Program-made: the position numbers and the translations under genes | Shown here: one piece after another, positions 11,827 to 23,064 of the stretch | Position numbering within the stretch: the first letter of the stretch is position 1 | How the letters are laid out: each line of letters starts with the position of its first letter | Notes under the pieces: model-generated | Databases searched by the model: none | Told to the model about the DNA's origin: nothing | The model's input: the letters and a program-made list of their open reading frames with translations, nothing else | Origin: a virus | UHGV virus genome: UHGV-0147806 | DNA length: 37,585 bases | Reading direction: 5' to 3' (one strand)

Positions 11827-12918
11827 GTGGGCGGCGAAACTAAGAATATTGATGAGATTGCAGGTATCATTTCCAGTAGAATTTTTGATGAGTTAGGCTG
11901 GAAAACCCAAAATACAACGGATATAAGTTGGGACTGTTGTTTGAGATCTCATCTAAACGCTAAACAACTTTTATCTGAAAACCCAAAAAAAACTCATCCT
12001 ACGGATGTAGTCTTCAAATATAAAGATCCTTATTCAGATATAACTCAGTATATACAAACAGATTTAAAATCTTATTGTGCCAGCACGCTTGACGGTACAA
12101 AATCAATATTGAACACTGTACGAAGTTTATCACAACAGGTAGCTTGCGCGCCAAGAAGTCCTGAGTGGCGGCGTTTATTTGTTGACAGCACAAATGAGAA
12201 ATATCAAGTTAACGGCCTACTTTTTATATATAATCATGACAATAAATATGACTCTGATTTAATTGAGAAATTAAATGGAGCAGCCACAGCAAGTTATGAT
12301 TTTCCAGAGAACTCTGTGATTGCCGTTTTTGACCCAACTATGATCAGATTTTTACTAGATGTTACAGAACACATCGAGACTAGAAGAGGAATTACTGACA
12401 AAGTAACACAAGAAACAAATATGTTATGGCAAAAAATTCCTGAGATAGAGAACTGTACATATTTTTACCCTGACAAACATAATAAAATAGCAACGAAAGG
12501 GAAAATCCTTCCAGCCACAATTGAAATGATAACATCTGGGATGATTTTTTACTCATATGAACACGAATATATTAGAAATGATGGTGGCGATAGAATAAGA
12601 AATAAAATATTGAATATATTCTGGAAGGAAGAGGTTGATTCCAGTAACCACTTTATATTTCTTTTAGAGTATATATTTAACTATCAATTACTCAATCAAT
12701 TTGACAAAATATTTGTTATAACTCCGTTCTCATCACACTCAAGCATTCATTTGCAATCCGCCATTAATGATTACATAGGAATATATTCTTTCACTCAATC
12801 TCATATAGAAACGTTAAAGGAAAAAATAGTATCCATTCCTTTTGTTAATCAAAAGCTATCTATATTTGAGTACCAGGTTGCCAGCAAGCAGGTGAATAGA
12901 AAATGTCACTTTTCATAA
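11827..12918 (+). CDS. Hypothetical protein A of AT-rich three-gene accessory operon (363 aa, GTG start)
   Basis: GTG at 11827 preceded by GGAGGA; AT-rich codon usage; no motif I can recognise with certainty. Confidence 0.7.
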   Translation: MGGETKNIDEIAGIISSRIFDELGWKTQNTTDISWDCCLRSHLNAKQLLSENPKKTHPTDVVFKYKDPYSDITQYIQTDLKSYCASTLDGTKSILNTVRSLSQQVACAPRSPEWRRLFVDSTNEKYQVNGLLFIYNHDNKYDSDLIEKLNGAATASYDFPENSVIAVFDPTMIRFLLDVTEHIETRRGITDKVTQETNMLWQKIPEIENCTYFYPDKHNKIATKGKILPATIEMITSGMIFYSYEHEYIRNDGGDRIRNKILNIFWKEEVDSSNHFIFLLEYIFNYQLLNQFDKIFVITPFSSHSSIHLQSAINDYIGIYSFTQSHIETLKEKIVSIPFVNQKLSIFEYQVASKQVNRKCHFS

Positions 12919-12928
12919 GGAGTATGAC

Positions 12929-14176
12929 ATGAATAAATATCAAGCTACGTTGTTTTCAAACGAAAGTGACATTTATACCGCCCTCCACTCTAACAGTGCA
13001 AAAATCACAGATGTTACATTAAGGAAAATCGCCTTCAATAGAGGGATAATTTTCCCATCTAACTTATCAAAAGAGGTATTGATAGAAAAATTATCAGACC
13101 TGCCATTTTCATATAATCACATCAGAGAAGTACAAGATAAACTGGCAACCAAACCCAGCCAAGACGTCTTCTCAGTAAAACGTATATATGAAGAATTTGA
13201 TATAGAGAAACTCTATGACGTTGTAAACAAAGTGAAAGAAAATAGACCCAAGTTGCTAGGGCATGAGAAAATTGATCATTACTCAGGCTTGCAAACCTAT
13301 CATATATCTATTGATTATACTGAGTTTGATTTTAGAAGGGGTAAGTTTCAGCAGAAAAAATTGTACAGTGGGAGTATAGTTTTTATAGTAAAAAAAGGAT
13401 ATGTTTCAGTAAGATATAACTATACGCCACGCATTTCAGAAATTCTCAAGCAAATAATTGATACATATTCATCAACAGTTTGTAACAACATAGTTGTCAA
13501 CGAAATAGATTTATCAAGTATCGTCGATACAGATCTTAGGAATATTTTTGCTGTTCATCTTTATGATTTTGATGGAAATTATAAAAAAACAGGACTTGAA
13601 TATGCTGGTCTTGAAAAGGTTAGAGTAAGCAGAATAAAAACATCTCTGGATATTAATGGAGATAATCTCGAAGGAAATAATAACGAAGAAACACAAGAGT
13701 TATTAAACAAGATTTCACCTTCTACAGATAACGAAAATGATGATGACATTAATAATCAGGAAATGGCATCTGACGATGATGAAAACCTAACTTTTAACAT
13801 TAACAATGCCGCGTATGATGGCCTATCATTAGTGAACGCACCTCAAATTAAGGAACTGTGCAGTGATGGGTTTTATCGAAGCTTAATTCGATGGAAGTCA
13901 TTTTCCTCAGTAGTTAAGAATCATACTATAACTTTTGAACTTAGTTTCGATGATAAATATCTTGGGAAAAATATAAAATTCAGAGCGTTATACAAAGAAA
14001 GCAACTCTGCATCCGCAGAGAGAGAAAAACTCAGTGACGCAGACTTTGATCAAGTCATGAAACAATTAGAAGATAAAATATTTTTGATTAATGACTTTAT
14101 TATCGAAGAGCATACCAAGCGATACCCAGTAACGAAAGCTATGTCTTGCGAGACTTTGAATCAGGAGGCTGGATGA
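12929..14176 (+). CDS. Hypothetical protein B of accessory operon (415 aa, acidic low-complexity linker)
   Basis: ATG after AAGGAG, 10 nt downstream of gene A; DNENDDDINNQEMASDDDEN linker. Confidence 0.7.
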   Translation: MNKYQATLFSNESDIYTALHSNSAKITDVTLRKIAFNRGIIFPSNLSKEVLIEKLSDLPFSYNHIREVQDKLATKPSQDVFSVKRIYEEFDIEKLYDVVNKVKENRPKLLGHEKIDHYSGLQTYHISIDYTEFDFRRGKFQQKKLYSGSIVFIVKKGYVSVRYNYTPRISEILKQIIDTYSSTVCNNIVVNEIDLSSIVDTDLRNIFAVHLYDFDGNYKKTGLEYAGLEKVRVSRIKTSLDINGDNLEGNNNEETQELLNKISPSTDNENDDDINNQEMASDDDENLTFNINNAAYDGLSLVNAPQIKELCSDGFYRSLIRWKSFSSVVKNHTITFELSFDDKYLGKNIKFRALYKESNSASAEREKLSDADFDQVMKQLEDKIFLINDFIIEEHTKRYPVTKAMSCETLNQEAG

Positions 14177-14829
14177 TGATAAAGGTAAAAATTTATAAAG
14201 CAGAAAAGGATATAACTAAAAGTGAGTTATTACATAAAGTAAATGACAACCTCTATGATGAAGATAAAGGATATGGTTTTCAAATCATTAATAACTCTGA
14301 AGTGCTTAAACTAAGATTTACCATGAGAAGCATTAGCAAGCAAAGCTTAGAATATGCTAATGGCGAGCGTTCAGAGGTTGAAATAGCAACTTACTTAAAT
14401 GTGGACTTTGGCGTCAGACAAGGGAAAAAAATCATACTATATGCCACTAATCCTCCATTAAGTATGAAAGTGCCTTATACTATGGTGCAAAAACTATTTG
14501 GTGAAGATAGTGGCTTGAGACCAGTAGAATTTGATCTGAGAAAAATTGTAAATGGTCTTTCTGAGGGCTTTGACATCAAGATAAAATCCATGTCTCTATC
14601 TAATATCTCTGTTGATCCTTTTACTTTAGCAAAGACAAAAATAGTAAGCTCAAAGAATCTCCAAGAAATTTATCAGAATAAATACATGAATAGTTCGGCC
14701 GTTTTTGATTCCGTACATTTCTTCGTTAACGGAATTGAAACGGAATTATCTAGGACGGGTAGATTCCGTGTGAGAGAGAGTCAGCTTCCAACACTTTTAT
14801 CCATCTTAGAAACTCTCAGAATTTTGTGA
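14173..14829 (+). CDS. Hypothetical protein C of accessory operon (about 218 aa)
   Basis: ATGATG start overlapping the gene B stop (ATGA), preceded by AGGAGG; strong intrinsic terminator follows. Confidence 0.65.
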   Translation: MMIKVKIYKAEKDITKSELLHKVNDNLYDEDKGYGFQIINNSEVLKLRFTMRSISKQSLEYANGERSEVEIATYLNVDFGVRQGKKIILYATNPPLSMKVPYTMVQKLFGEDSGLRPVEFDLRKIVNGLSEGFDIKIKSMSLSNISVDPFTLAKTKIVSSKNLQEIYQNKYMNSSAVFDSVHFFVNGIETELSRTGRFRVRESQLPTLLSILETLRIL

Positions 14830-17196: not shown

Positions 17197-17486
17197 TGGT
17201 GAATTTACGTAAAGCGGCTAAAGGCCAGATGTGCCAGATCAGAATCCCTGGCTACTGCAATCACAATCCCGAAACCTCTGTGCTGGCGCATTACAGGCTG
17301 GCGGGGACGTGCGGAACAGCGACAAAACCACATGATATGCAGGCGGCGATAGCCTGTAGCTCATGCCACGATCTAATCGACGGGCGGGTAAAAACCAGCG
17401 ATTACACCAAAGAAGAATTGCGCCTGATGCATGCTGAAGGGGTTTTTCGCACACAAGAAATCTGGAGAAAGAAAGGTCATTTATGA
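17196..17486 (+). CDS. YbcO-like nin-region protein (DUF1364-type, Cys/His-rich, 96 aa)
   Basis: 96-aa product with CQIRIPGYC ... CSSCHD pattern; position between a nin ORF and Q. Confidence 0.6.
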   Translation: MVNLRKAAKGQMCQIRIPGYCNHNPETSVLAHYRLAGTCGTATKPHDMQAAIACSSCHDLIDGRVKTSDYTKEELRLMHAEGVFRTQEIWRKKGHL

Positions 17487-18025
17487 TTTACCCAACGAAT
17501 ACAGGAAAAAGCGGAGAACACCTTCGCCTCACCACGCTGGAAAGTGTCTGGATTCAGGGAAAACTACGTATGTGGGGGCGCTGGTCGTATATTGGCGGTG
17601 GCAGGTCAGGGAATATGTTCAATCAGTTGTTGGCATCCAAAAAACTGACGAAAACAGCCATTAATGAAGCCCTGCGCAGAATGAAAAAAGCGGGAATAGA
17701 GAAAGCTGAGCTGGAAGCGTTTTTGCGAGAGATGATCAACGGCAAGCAAAAGAGCTGGCTGGCGCATTGTACTGATGCAGAGGCGTTATGTATTGATCGA
17801 GTCATAAGTGAGGTGCTGGCAGAGCATCCAGGATTGATTTGCATTCTCCGGCAACGCTATGAAGGGCGGGGGATGACTAAGCGCAAAATGGCTGAATTGC
17901 TAAATGATGCACACCCAGAGTGGTGTTTTAGCACATGCGAAAAACGGATTGCTAATTGGTTAGCTGTTGCTGAGTATGCCCTATATATTCCCATGCGTGA
18001 ATCATTTGCTGAGAAAATGGCTTGA
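17483..18025 (+). CDS. Late-gene antiterminator Q-like protein (180 aa)
   Basis: ATGA overlap with the upstream gene; followed about 80 nt later by a strong intrinsic terminator and then the lysis cassette. Confidence 0.55.
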   Translation: MIYPTNTGKSGEHLRLTTLESVWIQGKLRMWGRWSYIGGGRSGNMFNQLLASKKLTKTAINEALRRMKKAGIEKAELEAFLREMINGKQKSWLAHCTDAEALCIDRVISEVLAEHPGLICILRQRYEGRGMTKRKMAELLNDAHPEWCFSTCEKRIANWLAVAEYALYIPMRESFAEKMA

Positions 18026-18132: not shown

Positions 18133-18452
18133 ACGTCAGGAAAGCAGGGGAGAATGCTGCTAGTTGGGCAACTGGTCTTTCTGCTCCAAATTATAACAGA
18201 GACCAGTTATAGTTTCGGTGCTGTGTTTTTTTTACAATATTGTGATAACACATTGCTGGCGGGAGTTTTGATATTTCTTGGCAGGGGCTGATGATGCGTT
18301 ATCCTGATGTCGTCAACTCATATAAAATGAGATGAGAGATCATTGCAGGGTGGTTTGTAATTCGCTGTTTAGCGGGACAATATGTTGTCTGATACAAGAC
18401 ACCCGACGCCTCAGATTACTATAATAAAGACGAAGCATCCTTTGTATTGACC

Positions 18453-18478
18453 AACCGCCTGTTTAGGCGGTTCTTTTT
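18453..18478 (+). terminator. Second intrinsic terminator in the Q-to-lysis spacer
   Basis: AACCGCC-tgttta-GGCGGTT followed by CTTTTT. Confidence 0.6.
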
Positions 18479-19069
18479 GGGCTGGTTTATTGTATGCCAA
18501 ATGATTATTAAAAAGGTTGTGTTAATAACAAAATCCGAAATAATATGCCTGCATATTTTTATCTTGCTTATATTCTGCATATTGTGCATAGCAGGCTCAT
18601 CCCTGCAATCAAAACTGTATGATGAGTATTTTTTGTTTTCCTTTTTTCCAGTCATCTGATGATGACCTGCTTCTTTTTAATCCGGATCGACATCAGTTTT
18701 TTAAGATAATTCCTGCGAGTTATATGCATAAATGCCACAAACTCCGCATTTTATGTGGTTGGGAGTTGCCGGGCGCGCAGTGAGTTTGCTAAGAAAACTC
18801 CTGCATGGTGAATCCCCCTGTGCGGTGGGGTGATACCATTAACCTTTTCTGTCGCCGACAGGTATCACGAACATTTTGTTCACCGGGAGGCACCCGGCAC
18901 CATGCACTTCAATAGATTCTCTCCACATTATGGATATTCTTTCAGAATATCCCACGCAGACTTTGTGTAAATGTTAACAAATGTGCGTTTTATTTGATCT
19001 GATTCGCTGTTTGAGCGTCCAAAACAACGGTATATATAATCCTTTACTATATGACATATGTGAGGAAAA

Positions 19070-19498
19070 ATGGGTTTTCGTAGCGCATCAATTCTTACGT
19101 TGATTATTAGTGGGATTATTATCGGGTGCACTGATGCTGTATCGACAAATTATCATGACCGTACATCATATTACTCCGATAAAGCAATAGAGACACAGTA
19201 TGTGAGTTCATCTGAACGTACTTCTGATGTTAGTGAGGATATCCGTCTGTATGCCCATCAAATCAAGAGCGCCATCGAAAAACAGTTCGGGGATGCGAGT
19301 AAGTATTCAGGAAAAGAGTGTACACTGAGAATGCATATGGCCCCGAATGGCCTTCTACTGGAGGTTAAAAGAGAAAGTGGAGACCTCGATTTATGTCGTG
19401 AAGCGATGAATGCGATAAAGAATGCTGATATACCTGCCCCCCCTTCGCCGGAAGTATATAAAGTATTTCAAAATGGGGTGCTGGATTTTAAACCCTGA
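19070..19498 (+). CDS. Lipoprotein with TolA domain III-like C-terminus (142 aa)
   Basis: Lipobox IIIGC; C-terminal region closely resembles the E. coli TolA C-terminus as I recall it; GAGGA RBS. Confidence 0.75.
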   Translation: MGFRSASILTLIISGIIIGCTDAVSTNYHDRTSYYSDKAIETQYVSSSERTSDVSEDIRLYAHQIKSAIEKQFGDASKYSGKECTLRMHMAPNGLLLEVKRESGDLDLCREAMNAIKNADIPAPPSPEVYKVFQNGVLDFKP

Positions 19499-19648
19499 TA
19501 TTTATTGTTTTGTAATAAACGGTTTCGGCTTAGGTTTGTTCTGACACAGCTACGGCACTGAGCTAAATTTAGCGGATAGTCAGCTCTGAGCCAGTGGCGG
19601 ACGTAACAACTACTATTGCTGAGATTTTAATGGATTGAGGAGCAAGAA

Positions 19649-20044
19649 GTGGGATTAAAGAAAATCGTTATGTTGACTTTTTGGGTCGGTTTTGTTGCGG
19701 GATGCACACCTTTACACCCTTCAGATTGCCACAAAACTACTGCTACAGGTAGTTGCAGTTCAGGACGCTGGGATGATCAGGATGAATGGGGGGCGCAAGC
19801 GCGGGGAATCAGAGCTGCAATTAATGCCAAACTTGATGAGCCGCATAACTGGAAAGGGAAAAAATGCAGGTTGCATATGGAATTCTCTCAGGATGGCACG
19901 GCGTTAAAAATATCTACCAGTAACGGTGATAAAGCCTATTGCGAAGCGATAAAGTCCGCAGCTCATAAAGCCAAATTTCCGGCCTTCAACAATCCGGAAG
20001 TCTACAGAGATTTTCAGAAATCTGGCTTTGACATGCGAGGTTAG
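19649..20044 (+). CDS. Second, more divergent TolA domain III-like lipoprotein (131 aa, GTG start)
   Basis: GTG after GAGGAG; signal peptide with lipobox VAGC; C-terminal region KKCRLHMEFSQDG ... PEVYRDFQKSGFDMRG parallels the first lipoprotein. Confidence 0.65.
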   Translation: MGLKKIVMLTFWVGFVAGCTPLHPSDCHKTTATGSCSSGRWDDQDEWGAQARGIRAAINAKLDEPHNWKGKKCRLHMEFSQDGTALKISTSNGDKAYCEAIKSAAHKAKFPAFNNPEVYRDFQKSGFDMRG

Positions 20045-20169
20045 CTCTTCAATTACTATATCTCATTCATAGCAAACTGACAGATTTGATGATGTTCTAT
20101 ATACGAAACCTGTGATGTCAAGTCTGAGCTAATACAAATAAACATAATATCAGAGAAATACATTTTATT

Positions 20170-20192
20170 AGCTCGCTACGGCGAGCTTTTTA
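20170..20192 (+). terminator. Intrinsic terminator after the lipoprotein genes
   Basis: AGCTCGC-tacg-GCGAGCT followed by TTTTT. Confidence 0.7.
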
Positions 20193-20295
20193 TATTGCAT
20201 CGTCTCCAGCATATATATCAATTAAGGCTCTGATTGATGTGTCTGAAAGCCTACACATAATAACTATGCCATCCGTTCCGTGCGGAGGTGAGGCT

Positions 20296-20511
20296 ATGAA
20301 ATCCATGGACAAAATTTCAACAGGCATTGCCTACGGCACCTCCGCAGGCAGTGCTGGCTACTGGTTTTTACAGTTGCTCGATAGAGTAACTCCGTCACAG
20401 TGGGCTGCAATCGGTGTGCTGGGTAGTCTGGTATTTGGCCTGCTGACGTACCTGACAAACCTTTATTTCAAGATTAAAGAAGATAAGCGCAAGGCTGCGA
20501 GAGGTGAATAA
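20296..20511 (+). CDS. Class II holin (phage 21 S / EssD-like pinholin, 71 aa) with dual-start motif MKSM
   Basis: GGAGGTGAGG RBS; two in-frame ATGs at 20296 and 20305; one transmembrane-rich small protein directly upstream of the endolysin. Confidence 0.85.
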
Positions 20512-21008
20512 TGCCTCCATCATTACGAAAAGCCGTTGCTGCTGCTATTGGTGGCGGAGCAATTGCTATAGCATCAGTGTTAATCACTGGCCCAAGTGGT
20601 AACGATGGTCTGGAAGGTGTCAGCTACATACCATACAAAGATATTGTTGGTGTATGGACTGTATGTCACGGGCATACAGGAAAAGACATCATGCTCGGTA
20701 AAACGTATACCAAAGCAGAATGCAAAACACTCTTGAATAAAGACCTTGCCACTGTCGCCAGACAAATTAACCCGTACATCAAAGTCGATATACCGGAAAC
20801 AACGCGCGGCGCTCTTTACTCATTCGTTTACAACGTGGGTGCTGGCAATTTCAGAACATCGACGCTTCTTCGCAAAATAAACCAGGGCGATATCAAAGGC
20901 GCATGTGATCAGCTACGTCGCTGGACATATGCTGGCGGTAAGCAATGGAAAGGTCTCATGACTCGTCGTGAGATTGAGCGTGAAATCTGTTTGTGGGGTC
21001 AGCAATGA
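20511..21008 (+). CDS. SAR endolysin (phage 21 R-like lysozyme, 165 aa)
   Basis: N-terminal Gly/Ala-rich signal-arrest-release segment ([18 protein letters not shown]); start overlaps the holin stop. Confidence 0.85.
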
Positions 21009-21469
21009 ACAGAGTAACCGCGATTATCTCCGCTCTGGTTATCTGCATCATCGTCTGCCTGTCATGGGCTGTTAATCATTACCGTGATAACGCCATTACC
21101 TACAAAGCCCAGCGCGACAAAAATGCCAGAGAACTGAAGCTGGCGAACGCGGCAATTACTGACATGCAGATGCGTCAGCGTGATGTTGCTGCGCTCGATG
21201 CAAAATACACGAAGGAGTTAGCTGATGCTAAAGCTGAAAATGATGCTCTGCGTGATGATGTTGCCGCTGGTCGTCGTCGGTTGCACATCAAAGCAGTCTG
21301 TCAGTCAGTGCGTGAAGCCACCACCGCCTCCGGCGTGGATAATGCAGCCTCCCCCCGACTGGCAGACACCGCTGAACGGGATTATTTCACCCTCCGGGAA
21401 CGACTGGTAATGATGCAGGCCCAACTTGAAGGTGCTCAGCAATACATAACCGAGCAGTGTTTAAAGTAA
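21005..21469 (+). CDS. Rz i-spanin
   Basis: ATGA overlap with the endolysin; N-terminal transmembrane segment then coiled coil; contains an embedded lipoprotein ORF in another frame. Confidence 0.85.
21225..21410 (+). CDS. Rz1 o-spanin lipoprotein embedded within Rz in another frame
   Basis: 61-aa ORF with lipobox VVGC and proline-rich mature part, wholly inside Rz. Confidence 0.8.
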
Positions 21470-21606
21470 AATCTTAACTACAATATGATTCATTTTGATG
21501 ATTGTTTCATAAGGAACAGTGAAGTAAGATCTAAGAGGAGTTAAATTTTATACAGTATAATCATAATATTGCAGCAAGGTGGTTATAATTGAAAGAATAT
21601 TTAGAT

Positions 21607-23064
21607 ATGAATACATCTCATGTAAGAGTTGTTACTCATATGTGTGGGTTCCTGGTTTGGCTCTATAGTCTTTCAATGTTGCCACCAATGGTTGTAGCAT
21701 TGTTTTATAAAGAAAAAAGCCTGTTCGTTTTCTTTATAACTTTCGTTATATTTTTTTGCATTGGTGGCGGAGCGTGGTATACAACTAAGAAATCTGGCAT
21801 TCAATTACGTACCCGTGATGGGTTTATTATAATTGTAATGTTTTGGATTTTGTTTTCTGTTATTAGTGCATTCCCTTTATGGATTGACTCAGAACTTAAT
21901 TTAACGTTCATTGATGCTCTGTTTGAAGGGGTTTCTGGAATAACAACAACAGGAGCAACTGTAATTGATGATGTTAGTTCATTACCTCGGGCATATTTGT
22001 ACTATCGGTCACAGTTAAATTTTATAGGTGGTTTAGGAGTTATTGTTCTGGCGGTTGCAGTATTGCCATTATTGGGTATTGGTGGTGCAAAGCTTTATCA
22101 GTCAGAAATGCCGGGGCCATTTAAGGATGACAAACTCACTCCCCGCCTGGCCGATACGTCACGGACACTGTGGATAACTTATTCTTTATTAGGTATTGCT
22201 TGTATTGTCTGTTATAGACTTGCAGGAATGCCTTTGTTTGATGCTATTTGTCACGGGATTTCCACAGTTTCGCTTGGTGGTTTCTCAACTCATAGCGAGA
22301 GTATCGGATATTTTAATAACTATTTGGTTGAGCTGGTGGCTGGTTCTTTTTCCCTGCTATCGGCTTTCAACTTCACTCTTTGGTATATTGTTATTAGCAG
22401 AAAAACGATAAAACCTTTAATCAGAGATATTGAACTTCGTTTCTTTCTGTTAATAGCCTTAGGGGTGATCATTGTTACCTCTTTCCAGGTCTGGCATATA
22501 GGTATGTATGACTTGCATGGAAGTTTTATTCATTCGTTTTTTCTTGCCAGCTCCATGCTCACTGATAATGGTTTAGCTACGCAGGATTATGCAAACTGGC
22601 CCACGCACACGATAGTGTTTTTGCTGTTGTCAAGTTTCTTTGGGGGATGTATAGGTTCAACCTGTGGTGGAATTAAGTCACTTCGATTTCTTATACTTTT
22701 CAAACAAAGCAAACACGAGATAAATCAGCTTTCTCATCCCAGAGCGTTGTTGAGTGTAAATGTAGGAGGGAAGATAGTTACAGATCGTGTAATGAGGTCT
22801 GTATGGAGTTTCTTTTTTCTTTATACTCTCTTCACGGTGTTTTTTATACTGGTGTTAAATGGTATGGGATATGATTTTCTTACATCATTTGCAACAGTGG
22901 CTGCATGTATTAATAATATGGGATTAGGTTTTGGGGCTACTGCATCGTCATTCGGAGTGCTTAATGACATTGCAAAATATTTAATGTGCATAGCTATGAT
23001 TCTTGGTCGCCTTGAAATTTATCCTGTTATTATATTGTTTTCAGGTTTTTTTTGGCGCTCCTAA
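21607..23064 (+). CDS. trkG: TrkG potassium uptake protein (485 aa, Rac cargo gene)
   Basis: Polytopic membrane protein; AT-rich; the translation from MNTSHVRVVTHMCGFLVW matches my recollection of K-12 TrkG. Confidence 0.9.
   Translation: MNTSHVRVVTHMCGFLVWLYSLSMLPPMVVALFYKEKSLFVFFITFVIFFCIGGGAWYTTKKSGIQLRTRDGFIIIVMFWILFSVISAFPLWIDSELNLTFIDALFEGVSGITTTGATVIDDVSSLPRAYLYYRSQLNFIGGLGVIVLAVAVLPLLGIGGAKLYQSEMPGPFKDDKLTPRLADTSRTLWITYSLLGIACIVCYRLAGMPLFDAICHGISTVSLGGFSTHSESIGYFNNYLVELVAGSFSLLSAFNFTLWYIVISRKTIKPLIRDIELRFFLLIALGVIIVTSFQVWHIGMYDLHGSFIHSFFLASSMLTDNGLATQDYANWPTHTIVFLLLSSFFGGCIGSTCGGIKSLRFLILFKQSKHEINQLSHPRALLSVNVGGKIVTDRVMRSVWSFFFLYTLFTVFFILVLNGMGYDFLTSFATVAACINNMGLGFGATASSFGVLNDIAKYLMCIAMILGRLEIYPVIILFSGFFWRS

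Follow-up and report, generated by a model that had tools for sequence, protein, structure and literature searches.

Tandem lipoproteins ending in a TolA domain III-like domain in the Q-to-lysis interval of a Rac-type prophage: candidate co-receptor decoys

What might a lambdoid prophage gain from two small lipoprotein genes in tandem, each ending in a copy of the C-terminal domain of the host protein TolA? The question is raised by the virus genome UHGV-0147806, of which the whole stretch of 37,585 nucleotides was analysed (hereafter the window), a Rac-type lambdoid prophage with an integrase at the left end, followed by recET, kilR and trkG and, further on, by the genes for head and tail. 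The two genes, called ORF1 and ORF2, are as follows.

19070-19498, plus strand: ORF1, 142 amino acids; lipobox IIG-C with the Cys20 codon at 19127-19129; linker at residues 21-54; TolA domain III at residues 55-142 (19232-19495).
19649-20044, plus strand: ORF2, 131 amino acids, GTG start; lipobox VAG-C with the Cys19 codon at 19703-19705; segment with a cysteine loop at residues 20-44; TolA domain III at residues 45-131.

We propose, at about an even chance, that ORF1 and ORF2 are non-energised co-receptor decoys, tethered to the outer membrane, that act against Tol-dependent colicins and against the g3p protein of filamentous phages. The proposal builds on what is established below for the two genes: the identity and fold of the domain, the lipobox motif, the purifying selection, the mobility and the gene contexts.

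ORF1 matches the Pfam profile of the TolA C-terminal domain, PF06519, over residues 49-140 (E=2.4e-23; 82.6 bits against a gathering threshold of 25 bits), and its best match among PDB sequences is E. coli TolA 334-421 (E~5e-28), with which it is identical at 52 of 88 aligned positions (59%). A sequence-only reading of this DNA had described a TolA-like C-terminus, and the alignment bears it out; both ORFs lie at the coordinates given in that reading, and the peptide it gives for ORF1 matches the actual translation. ORF2 gives weaker matches to the same profile (E=1.3e-14, 54.6 bits, residues 44-125) and to the same part of TolA (E~5e-9, 27 of 88 positions identical), and ORF1 is nearer to host TolA than it is to ORF2. 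An AlphaFold2 model of ORF2, made with 36 homologues, has a predicted local distance difference test score (pLDDT) above 87 for residues 45-131 and is placed by Foldseek on the TolA domain III (TolAIII) structures 3QDP, 2X9A, 3QDR and 1TOL, best of all on 3QDP (target template-modelling score, TM, 0.92; root-mean-square deviation 1.1 Å). Given the profile matches, the PDB matches and this superposition together, we take the likeness of both proteins to TolA to be real homology and not chance. The cysteine pair within the domain is invariant across TolA and the families that we call F1, F2 (that of ORF2) and F3, and both cysteines are kept in family F4 too.

Neither protein is, by its sequence, a bona fide TolA, for both lack the membrane anchor (domain I) and the long helical domain II, and both fail the cut-off of 213 bits for NF007065 (107.8 bits for ORF1 and 53.7 for ORF2). 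Against TIGR02794, with its cut-off of 59.45 bits, ORF1 scores above at 75.6 bits, but over profile positions 265-362 only, and ORF2 scores below at 47.2 bits. A Pfam scan of both ORFs returned only TolA- and TonB-type C-terminal domains, besides one weak and unrelated match (But2, E=0.15). Both belong to PHROG 5772, labelled 'unknown function', and the NCBI product name is 'cell envelope integrity TolA C-terminal domain-containing protein'.

In place of the anchor, both proteins begin with what pattern matching, with [LVI][ASTVI][GAS]C as the lipobox, identifies as a lipoprotein signal peptide, MGFRSASILTLIISGIIIG-C20 in ORF1 (R4 in the n-region, a hydrophobic core and the lipobox IIG-C20) and MGLKKIVMLTFWVGFVAG-C19 in ORF2 (K4 and K5 in the n-region, a hydrophobic core and the lipobox VAG-C19), which upholds, as a motif-level call only, the earlier claim of two lipoprotein signals. 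In two database searches almost every full-length homologue had the lipobox and its cysteine, with variation elsewhere in the signal peptide. The residue at position +2, after the lipobox cysteine, is Thr in ORF1 and in ORF2. Sorting of lipoproteins by the Lol '+2 rule' is established knowledge, and both proteins are therefore predicted to reside in the outer membrane. In ORF1 the signal is followed by a linker rich in Ser, Thr and Tyr, and the gene is preceded by a candidate ribosome-binding site, GAGG, at 19062-19065. The GTG start of ORF2 is supported by the ribosome-binding site GAGGAG at 19637-19642, 6 nt upstream, and by the Met or Val found at the same point in its relatives; relatives annotated as longer, among them the plasmid copies, have the ribosome-binding site translated. 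In a near-identical prophage in RefSeq, that of strain ECCHD184, the Prokaryotic Genome Annotation Pipeline (PGAP) starts the ORF2 copy (locus L001, 20771-21145) at an internal ATG, so that the charged n-region of the signal peptide is lost.

In the ORF2 family the mature protein starts with a segment (residues 20-44, window 19706-19780) that reads C-x-PLHPS-x-CHKTTATGSCSSGRWDDQDEW and is conserved to the same degree as the folded domain that follows it (mean entropy 0.31 bits in the segment, 0.42 in the domain); AlphaFold confidence is low there. A small disulfide loop is suggested by two further cysteines in the segment. We considered and dropped a mimic of the TolB box in this segment (SSGRWDDQDEW compared with DGSGW...W of colicin E9), because its second Trp falls opposite Y340 of TolA, where the first helix begins, and because the first aromatic residue is lost in more distant relatives.

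Are these genes still at work, or are they functionless, decaying pieces of a captured tolA gene? The one observation in favour of decay comes from the same strain ECCHD184, where PGAP labels the region of ORF1 (L001 20339-20599) 'tolA, incomplete, missing N-terminus', a pseudogene. This label arises from a protein of 142 amino acids being judged against a full-length TolA model, and other records annotate the full 142-residue protein. Compared with a variant in another prophage (locus L003) that is about 65% identical, ORF1 has a ratio of nonsynonymous to synonymous substitution rates (dN/dS) of 0.35 (0.29 for the domain) at dS 0.61, and ORF2 compared with its plasmid copies has a dN/dS of 0.11 at dS 0.50. 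Constraint over a dS of 0.5-0.6 argues against decay, as do reading frames that stay intact, with the lipobox kept, across variants that are just 65-91% identical, the invariance of the disulfide cysteines, and a module that is at least 99% identical in 773 genomes. On these substitution patterns both ORFs are selected protein-coding genes under purifying selection, and the pseudogene label is for that reason an artefact; decay is excluded by the evidence, and we would leave it no more than a very slight residual chance.

The two genes did not arise from one another at this site. ORF1 and ORF2 are identical at 25 of 88 domain residues, and the nearest relatives of ORF2 are plasmid genes (I-complex plasmids and pO157), 88% identical in both protein and DNA, with homology that spans exactly 19619-20047 and so stops exactly at the borders of the gene; a local tandem duplication is ruled out on these two grounds. 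The sequence-only reading had called ORF2 a more divergent paralogue, of which the homology of the TolA domain stands and the descent as a diverged tandem copy of ORF1 does not. From these comparisons ORF2 was acquired on its own and belongs to a family carried by plasmids. That family, F2, lies between the relaxase gene nikB and trbC on conjugative plasmids of the IncI1/B/O, IncI-gamma/K1 and IncK2/Z groups, whose mating-pair formation system is of type I (MPF_I), and on pO157 the gene comes after a remnant of nikB. In the classical IncI1 plasmid pESBL, nikB is followed directly by trbC with no F2 gene between them, so that F2 is cargo and not core on I-complex plasmids. A role as a core conjugation gene was considered and is unsupported, pESBL lacking the gene and the transposon-directed insertion-site sequencing (TraDIS) paper on the I-complex being silent on it. 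Members of the ORF2 family are also found alone on chromosomes, in Enterobacter and, beside GmrSD and HEPN genes, in Serratia.

Which ligands could such domains hold? On TolAIII the site for the N1 domain of g3p (g3p-N1), colicin N and TolB consists of the first helix, 334-349, and the C-terminal strand with L417, D418, F419 and K420 (Ridley & Lakey 2015, PMC4339652), all three binding by beta-strand addition, and colicin A uses 375-LLDIKP-380 on the opposite face (PMC4339652). These surfaces compare as follows.

C-terminal strand: LDFKP in TolA, LDFKP in ORF1, FDMRG in ORF2.
Helix, mapped positions matching: 14/14 in TolA, 10/14 in ORF1, 3/14 in ORF2.
Colicin A box: LLDIKP in TolA, LLEVKR in ORF1, ALKIST in ORF2.

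By this mapping the TolA residues used by g3p-N1, colicin N and TolB are retained in ORF1, as is also seen in its helix (YAHQIKSAIE compared with YAGQIKSAIE in TolA), and its colicin A box is conservatively changed. The strand of ORF2 keeps its beta-forming residues and few of the side chains.

The model that we favour for ORF1 and ORF2 can be set out in steps. Lacking the anchor that binds TolQR, and having a lipoprotein signal instead, neither protein is able to couple to TolQR or to the proton-motive force, and their copies of TolA domain III would hang in the periplasm just beneath the outer membrane on a linker of 25-35 residues. Epitopes of group A colicin-like bacteriocins, entering via OmpF or TolC, would meet the decoy before they meet TolA, and g3p-N1 of a filamentous phage, brought in by a retracting pilus, would likewise encounter the tethered domain first. 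These ligands would dock by beta-strand addition on the exposed C-terminal strand and helix of the decoy and would be stuck in a dead-end complex, leaving the energised host TolA unengaged. A lysogen or plasmid host would in this way tolerate such toxins and phages while keeping their receptors, and two divergent copies would broaden the range of ligands. Ligand binding, a protective phenotype, expression of the genes in the lysogen, and lipidation with sorting to the outer membrane are the parts of this model that we infer. A decoy that is selective is favoured by the affinities measured for TolA, ~1 µM for colicin N and ~40 µM for TolB (PMC4339652). The contexts of the relatives, which include conjugative and bacteriocin plasmids, neighbourhoods of defence genes and pairing or fusion with TonB domains, fit competition and exclusion better than they fit the phage's own life cycle.

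Similar effects have been engineered. According to Levengood-Freyermuth, Click and Webster, writing in 1993, free TolAIII in the periplasm reportedly confers tolerance to colicins E1, E2, E3 and A, the same phenotype that we propose for ORF1 and ORF2; that construct was artificial, overproduced and soluble, whereas the proteins described here are natural, selected and predicted to be tethered to a membrane. In the Ton system, a periplasmic C-terminal fragment of TonB is said by Howard and colleagues (2001) to compete with the native transducer, reducing TonB-dependent uptake and sensitivity to colicins and phages. Such fragments are alike in being a non-energised C-terminal domain, and natural counterparts accompany TolA-like genes on plasmids; they differ in belonging to Ton and not to Tol and, unlike ORF1 and ORF2, in being engineered.

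A natural system close to these proteins is host TolA itself, whose domain III (PDB 1S62, 3QDP, 1TOL, 2X9A, 3QDR) shares the Pfam domain, the fold and the disulfide pair with ORF1 and ORF2; TolA differs in having its inner-membrane anchor and domain II, both missing from these two lipoproteins of mobile elements. Cor, of phi80, N15 and mEp phages, is an exclusion lipoprotein that acts against other phages. Llp of T5 is described as another in a preprint (bioRxiv 10.64898/2026.03.26.714494). Both are small outer-membrane lipoproteins encoded by phages that stop later invaders at the envelope, as ORF1 and ORF2 would, but Llp and Cor bind and plug FhuA where ORF1 and ORF2 would mimic a periplasmic co-receptor, a separation made by the Pfam scan only. 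Exclusion by the pIII/g3p protein of filamentous phages concerns the same step, the contact of TolA with g3p or with a colicin, and likewise sequesters one partner: g3p-N1 in the periplasm ties up TolA and thereby blocks phage and colicin A (PMC10424213). In that case the ligand is made and TolA is masked; with ORF1 and ORF2 the roles would be reversed, the arriving ligand being masked by a copy of the receptor domain.

How widely are such proteins distributed? With ORF2 as the query, an exhaustive HMMER search gave 130 cluster representatives, of which 70 are 100-170 amino acids long, 53 of these with a lipobox. In the range of 100-250 amino acids the same search gave 57 representatives with a lipobox; 33 of the 57 end in the beta-3 motif of the TolA C-terminus (hydrophobic-Asp-hydrophobic-Lys/Arg, as in FKNAPLDFKP) and none has Asp at +2, so that all 57 are predicted to reside in the outer membrane by the same sorting rule. 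A query with the TolA domain matches hundreds of Klebsiella plasmids, and 385 of 716 matching plasmids are mobilizable. Family F3 is found on IncF/IncR plasmids of Klebsiella, Enterobacter and Pantoea (those of Klebsiella being MPF_F), in many cases next to a gene for a thioredoxin-like protein. On the plasmids of Klebsiella and Enterobacter this gene, for a periplasmic protein resembling DsbA or TraF, lies directly upstream of F3 (L006 7217-7765; L017 4217-4765), and it may supply disulfide formation for the TolA domain. Family F4 is carried by small, mobilizable cloacin-type ColRNAI plasmids of 10-12 kb in K. pneumoniae, where the gene for the TolAIII lipoprotein overlaps one for a periplasmic TonB C-terminal domain, in an operon divergent from that for bacteriocin, immunity and lysis.

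L019 1512-2245 and L020 8583-9316, minus strand: F4 operon of TolAIII lipoprotein and TonB C-terminal domain; lipobox LLTA-C and C-terminus NAPLDFRP in the former, a signal peptide in the TonB protein.

The TonB partner recurs in other arrangements. An IncFIB plasmid of Pantoea dispersa encodes a TonB C-terminal domain lipoprotein of 111 amino acids with the lipobox LLG-C (L018 273-608), a few kb from the TolAIII lipoprotein gene of that plasmid, and in three representatives (P0207, P0223, P0263) a TonB_C domain followed by TolA_C is found within a single lipoprotein, one of these fusions lying on the chromosome of Buttiauxella gaviniae (L021 5977-6702) between unrelated operons. By its domain composition such a fusion is a joining of two energy-transducer tips in one non-energised protein. 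The best-known common trait of the TonB_C and TolA_C domains is that both are hijacked by bacteriocins and phages. In a survey of Klebsiella bacteriocins, 'TolA' and 'TolB [sic] family' genes are noted on a cloacin plasmid without comment.

These plasmid settings bear on a narrower alternative, namely that the family mainly guards cells bearing a conjugative pilus from inoviruses and that the prophage copies are incidental hitch-hikers. Phage IF1 is specific for the I-pilus. The g3p proteins of Ff and IF1 phages both use TolAIII as co-receptor (PDB 1TOL, 2X9A), and the position of F2 between nikB and trbC on MPF_I plasmids and the presence of F3 on MPF_F plasmids of Klebsiella would suit such a guard; that the pili of conjugative plasmids with these genes are receptors of TolA-dependent filamentous phages supports a decoy in general as well. 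Yet 364 of the 917 plasmids with a match are non-mobilizable, F4 is carried by bacteriocin plasmids that are small and mobilizable, pESBL as a classical IncI1 plasmid does without the gene, the prophage and lone chromosomal copies are in hosts with no necessary link to a pilus, and the TonB-domain partners point to bacteriocins or TonB-dependent phages. We consider it quite improbable that protection from inoviruses is the main purpose and the prophage copies mere passengers.

The position of the genes in the prophage adds a further set of observations. The features around them are these.

17483-18025, plus strand: Q-like late-gene antiterminator (Pfam DUF1133, E=2.5e-107; Phage_antitermQ, E=8.6e-6, 26.1 bits against a cut-off of 26).
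18396-18425, plus strand: candidate late promoter AAGACA-18-TATAAT (consensus scan).
18453-18472, plus strand: terminator-like hairpin after the candidate late promoter (consensus scan).
18773-18959, plus strand: RNA element of the STnc100 family (Rfam RF02076, 86.6 bits against a gathering threshold of 47, E=2.6e-18).
19011-19040, plus strand: sigma-70 promoter-like site TTGAGC-18-TATAAT, 10 of 12 consensus positions, 30 nt before ORF1.
20170-20197 (hairpin 20170-20187), plus strand: intrinsic terminator-like hairpin AGCTCGC-TACG-GCGAGCT followed by TTTTATATTG, between ORF2 and the holin gene (consensus scan).
20239-20511, plus strand: P21-type holin, with a homologue annotated essD.
20511-21008, plus strand: lysozyme of the lysis cassette.
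20993-21469, plus strand: Rz of the lysis cassette, with Rz1 embedded at 21225-21410.

With the Q-like gene upstream and the genes for holin, lysozyme and Rz downstream from 20239, the placing of the pair at the Q-to-lysis position of morons, made in the sequence-only reading, was correct, and the anatomy of the region, as annotated, is that of a moron in this interval. The promoter-like site and hairpin at 18396-18472 resemble a pR'/tR' arrangement and would function as one, and the site at 19011-19040 is a candidate promoter for expression of ORF1 in the lysogen. Promoter-like sites in the whole region number 11, against 6.1±2.6 expected. The STnc100-like element lies between the candidate late promoter and ORF1, at the left edge of the module. 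It may act as a regulatory RNA, or it may be a hot spot at which morons recombine; in the late region of another prophage (L003 6481-9362) fragments of both its ends are repeated about 5 times.

The stretch 18782-20512 (1.7 kb) recurs at 97% identity in phage mEp460_ev081 beside a different Q and different lysis and endolysin genes, and so moves as a cassette, with the terminator-like hairpin after ORF2 falling within the common module. In the phage genome database that was searched, mEp460_ev081 is the only record with either gene. Among complete E. coli genomes, 773 of 5426 (14%) hold a 1.3-kb core with ORF1 and ORF2 at ≥99% identity. In another prophage a gene of the ORF1 type comes after Q, a methylase gene and two tRNA genes, which is the stx position of Stx phages. 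Beyond the module, the gene for the potassium transporter TrkG (trkG, 21589-23064, plus strand) comes directly after Rz/Rz1, as in the Rac prophage of E. coli K-12, and is set apart as separate cargo by a GC content of only 0.31-0.35. A cargo block at 11827-14829 (plus strand), made up of three ORFs of 363, 415 and 227 amino acids, has no Pfam matches but matches the PADLOC candidate defence-system models PDLC03004, PDLC03005 and PDLC03006 (Hp1, Hp2, Hp3; E=5e-41, 1e-10 and 4e-11); in the near-identical prophage of strain ECCHD184 this block is replaced by a transporter/LysR island.

This setting brings in the main rival to the decoy, an inhibitor of Tol-Pal, in which the lipoproteins would titrate the TolB N-terminus (or Pal) off TolA and thereby loosen the outer membrane for lysis, for vesicles or for the release of toxins and bacteriocins. 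Genes placed immediately before the lysis cassette and after a candidate Q-dependent late promoter could serve release, as could an ORF1-type gene at the stx position and an F4 gene adjoining bacteriocin and lysis genes on cloacin-type plasmids. ORF1 has retained the TolB-binding strand, and mutations that block the docking of TolA with TolB give the full tol phenotype (PMC4339652). The prophage, however, already has a full set of holin, endolysin and spanin, the binding of TolB to TolA is weak at ~40 µM, and lone chromosomal and conjugative-plasmid copies are found where chronic leakiness would be costly; nor is it obvious how pairing or fusion with TonB C-terminal domains would help to loosen the envelope. 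In favour of the rival stands the leakage in the engineered case: periplasmic TolAIII is said, again from the 1993 work of Levengood-Freyermuth, to have made the outer membrane leaky. On balance we judge inhibition of Tol-Pal to be unlikely as the function of the pair.

That leakiness is also among the points that weigh against ORF1 and ORF2 as decoys. ORF1, by retaining the strand on which TolB docks, could perturb Tol-Pal instead of protecting the cell, and the ligand surfaces of ORF2 are strongly diverged from those of E. coli TolA (3/14 and 2/7 mapped positions). Lipidation and sorting to the outer membrane are predicted from motifs, and the putative promoter and terminator of the module are consensus matches only. 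Most E. coli lysogens have no conjugative pili, so that filamentous phages are not the main pressure on the prophage copies. Neither ORF matched any family among the defence models of PADLOC-DB v2, and full-text searches of the papers that could be searched found no functional study of these proteins.

We extend the proposal, more tentatively and at a little less than an even chance, from the pair to its relatives: non-energised copies of the C-terminal domains of TolA and TonB would make up a previously unrecognised class of 'import-machinery decoys' on mobile elements of Enterobacterales, tethered to the outer membrane or free in the periplasm, and single, operonic or fused. Without any need for immunity proteins they would protect broadly against colicin-like bacteriocins and against filamentous or TonB-dependent phages, the two genes of the window being the prophage members. 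The domain itself is known to databases; a natural copy of a co-receptor domain acting as a decoy would be new among factors of exclusion or tolerance at the envelope. If the two proteins are indeed decoys, this would explain why roughly one complete E. coli genome in seven has the gene pair, and would account for the cargo genes that are conserved on I-complex, IncF and cloacin-type plasmids, pO157 included. It would also establish a principle in which a mobile element copies the periplasmic co-receptor of its invader instead of removing or plugging a surface receptor. Such decoys would affect the use of colicin and bacteriocin therapeutics and of filamentous-phage tools on natural isolates, and could explain colicin 'tolerance' in strains whose receptors and tol genes are intact.

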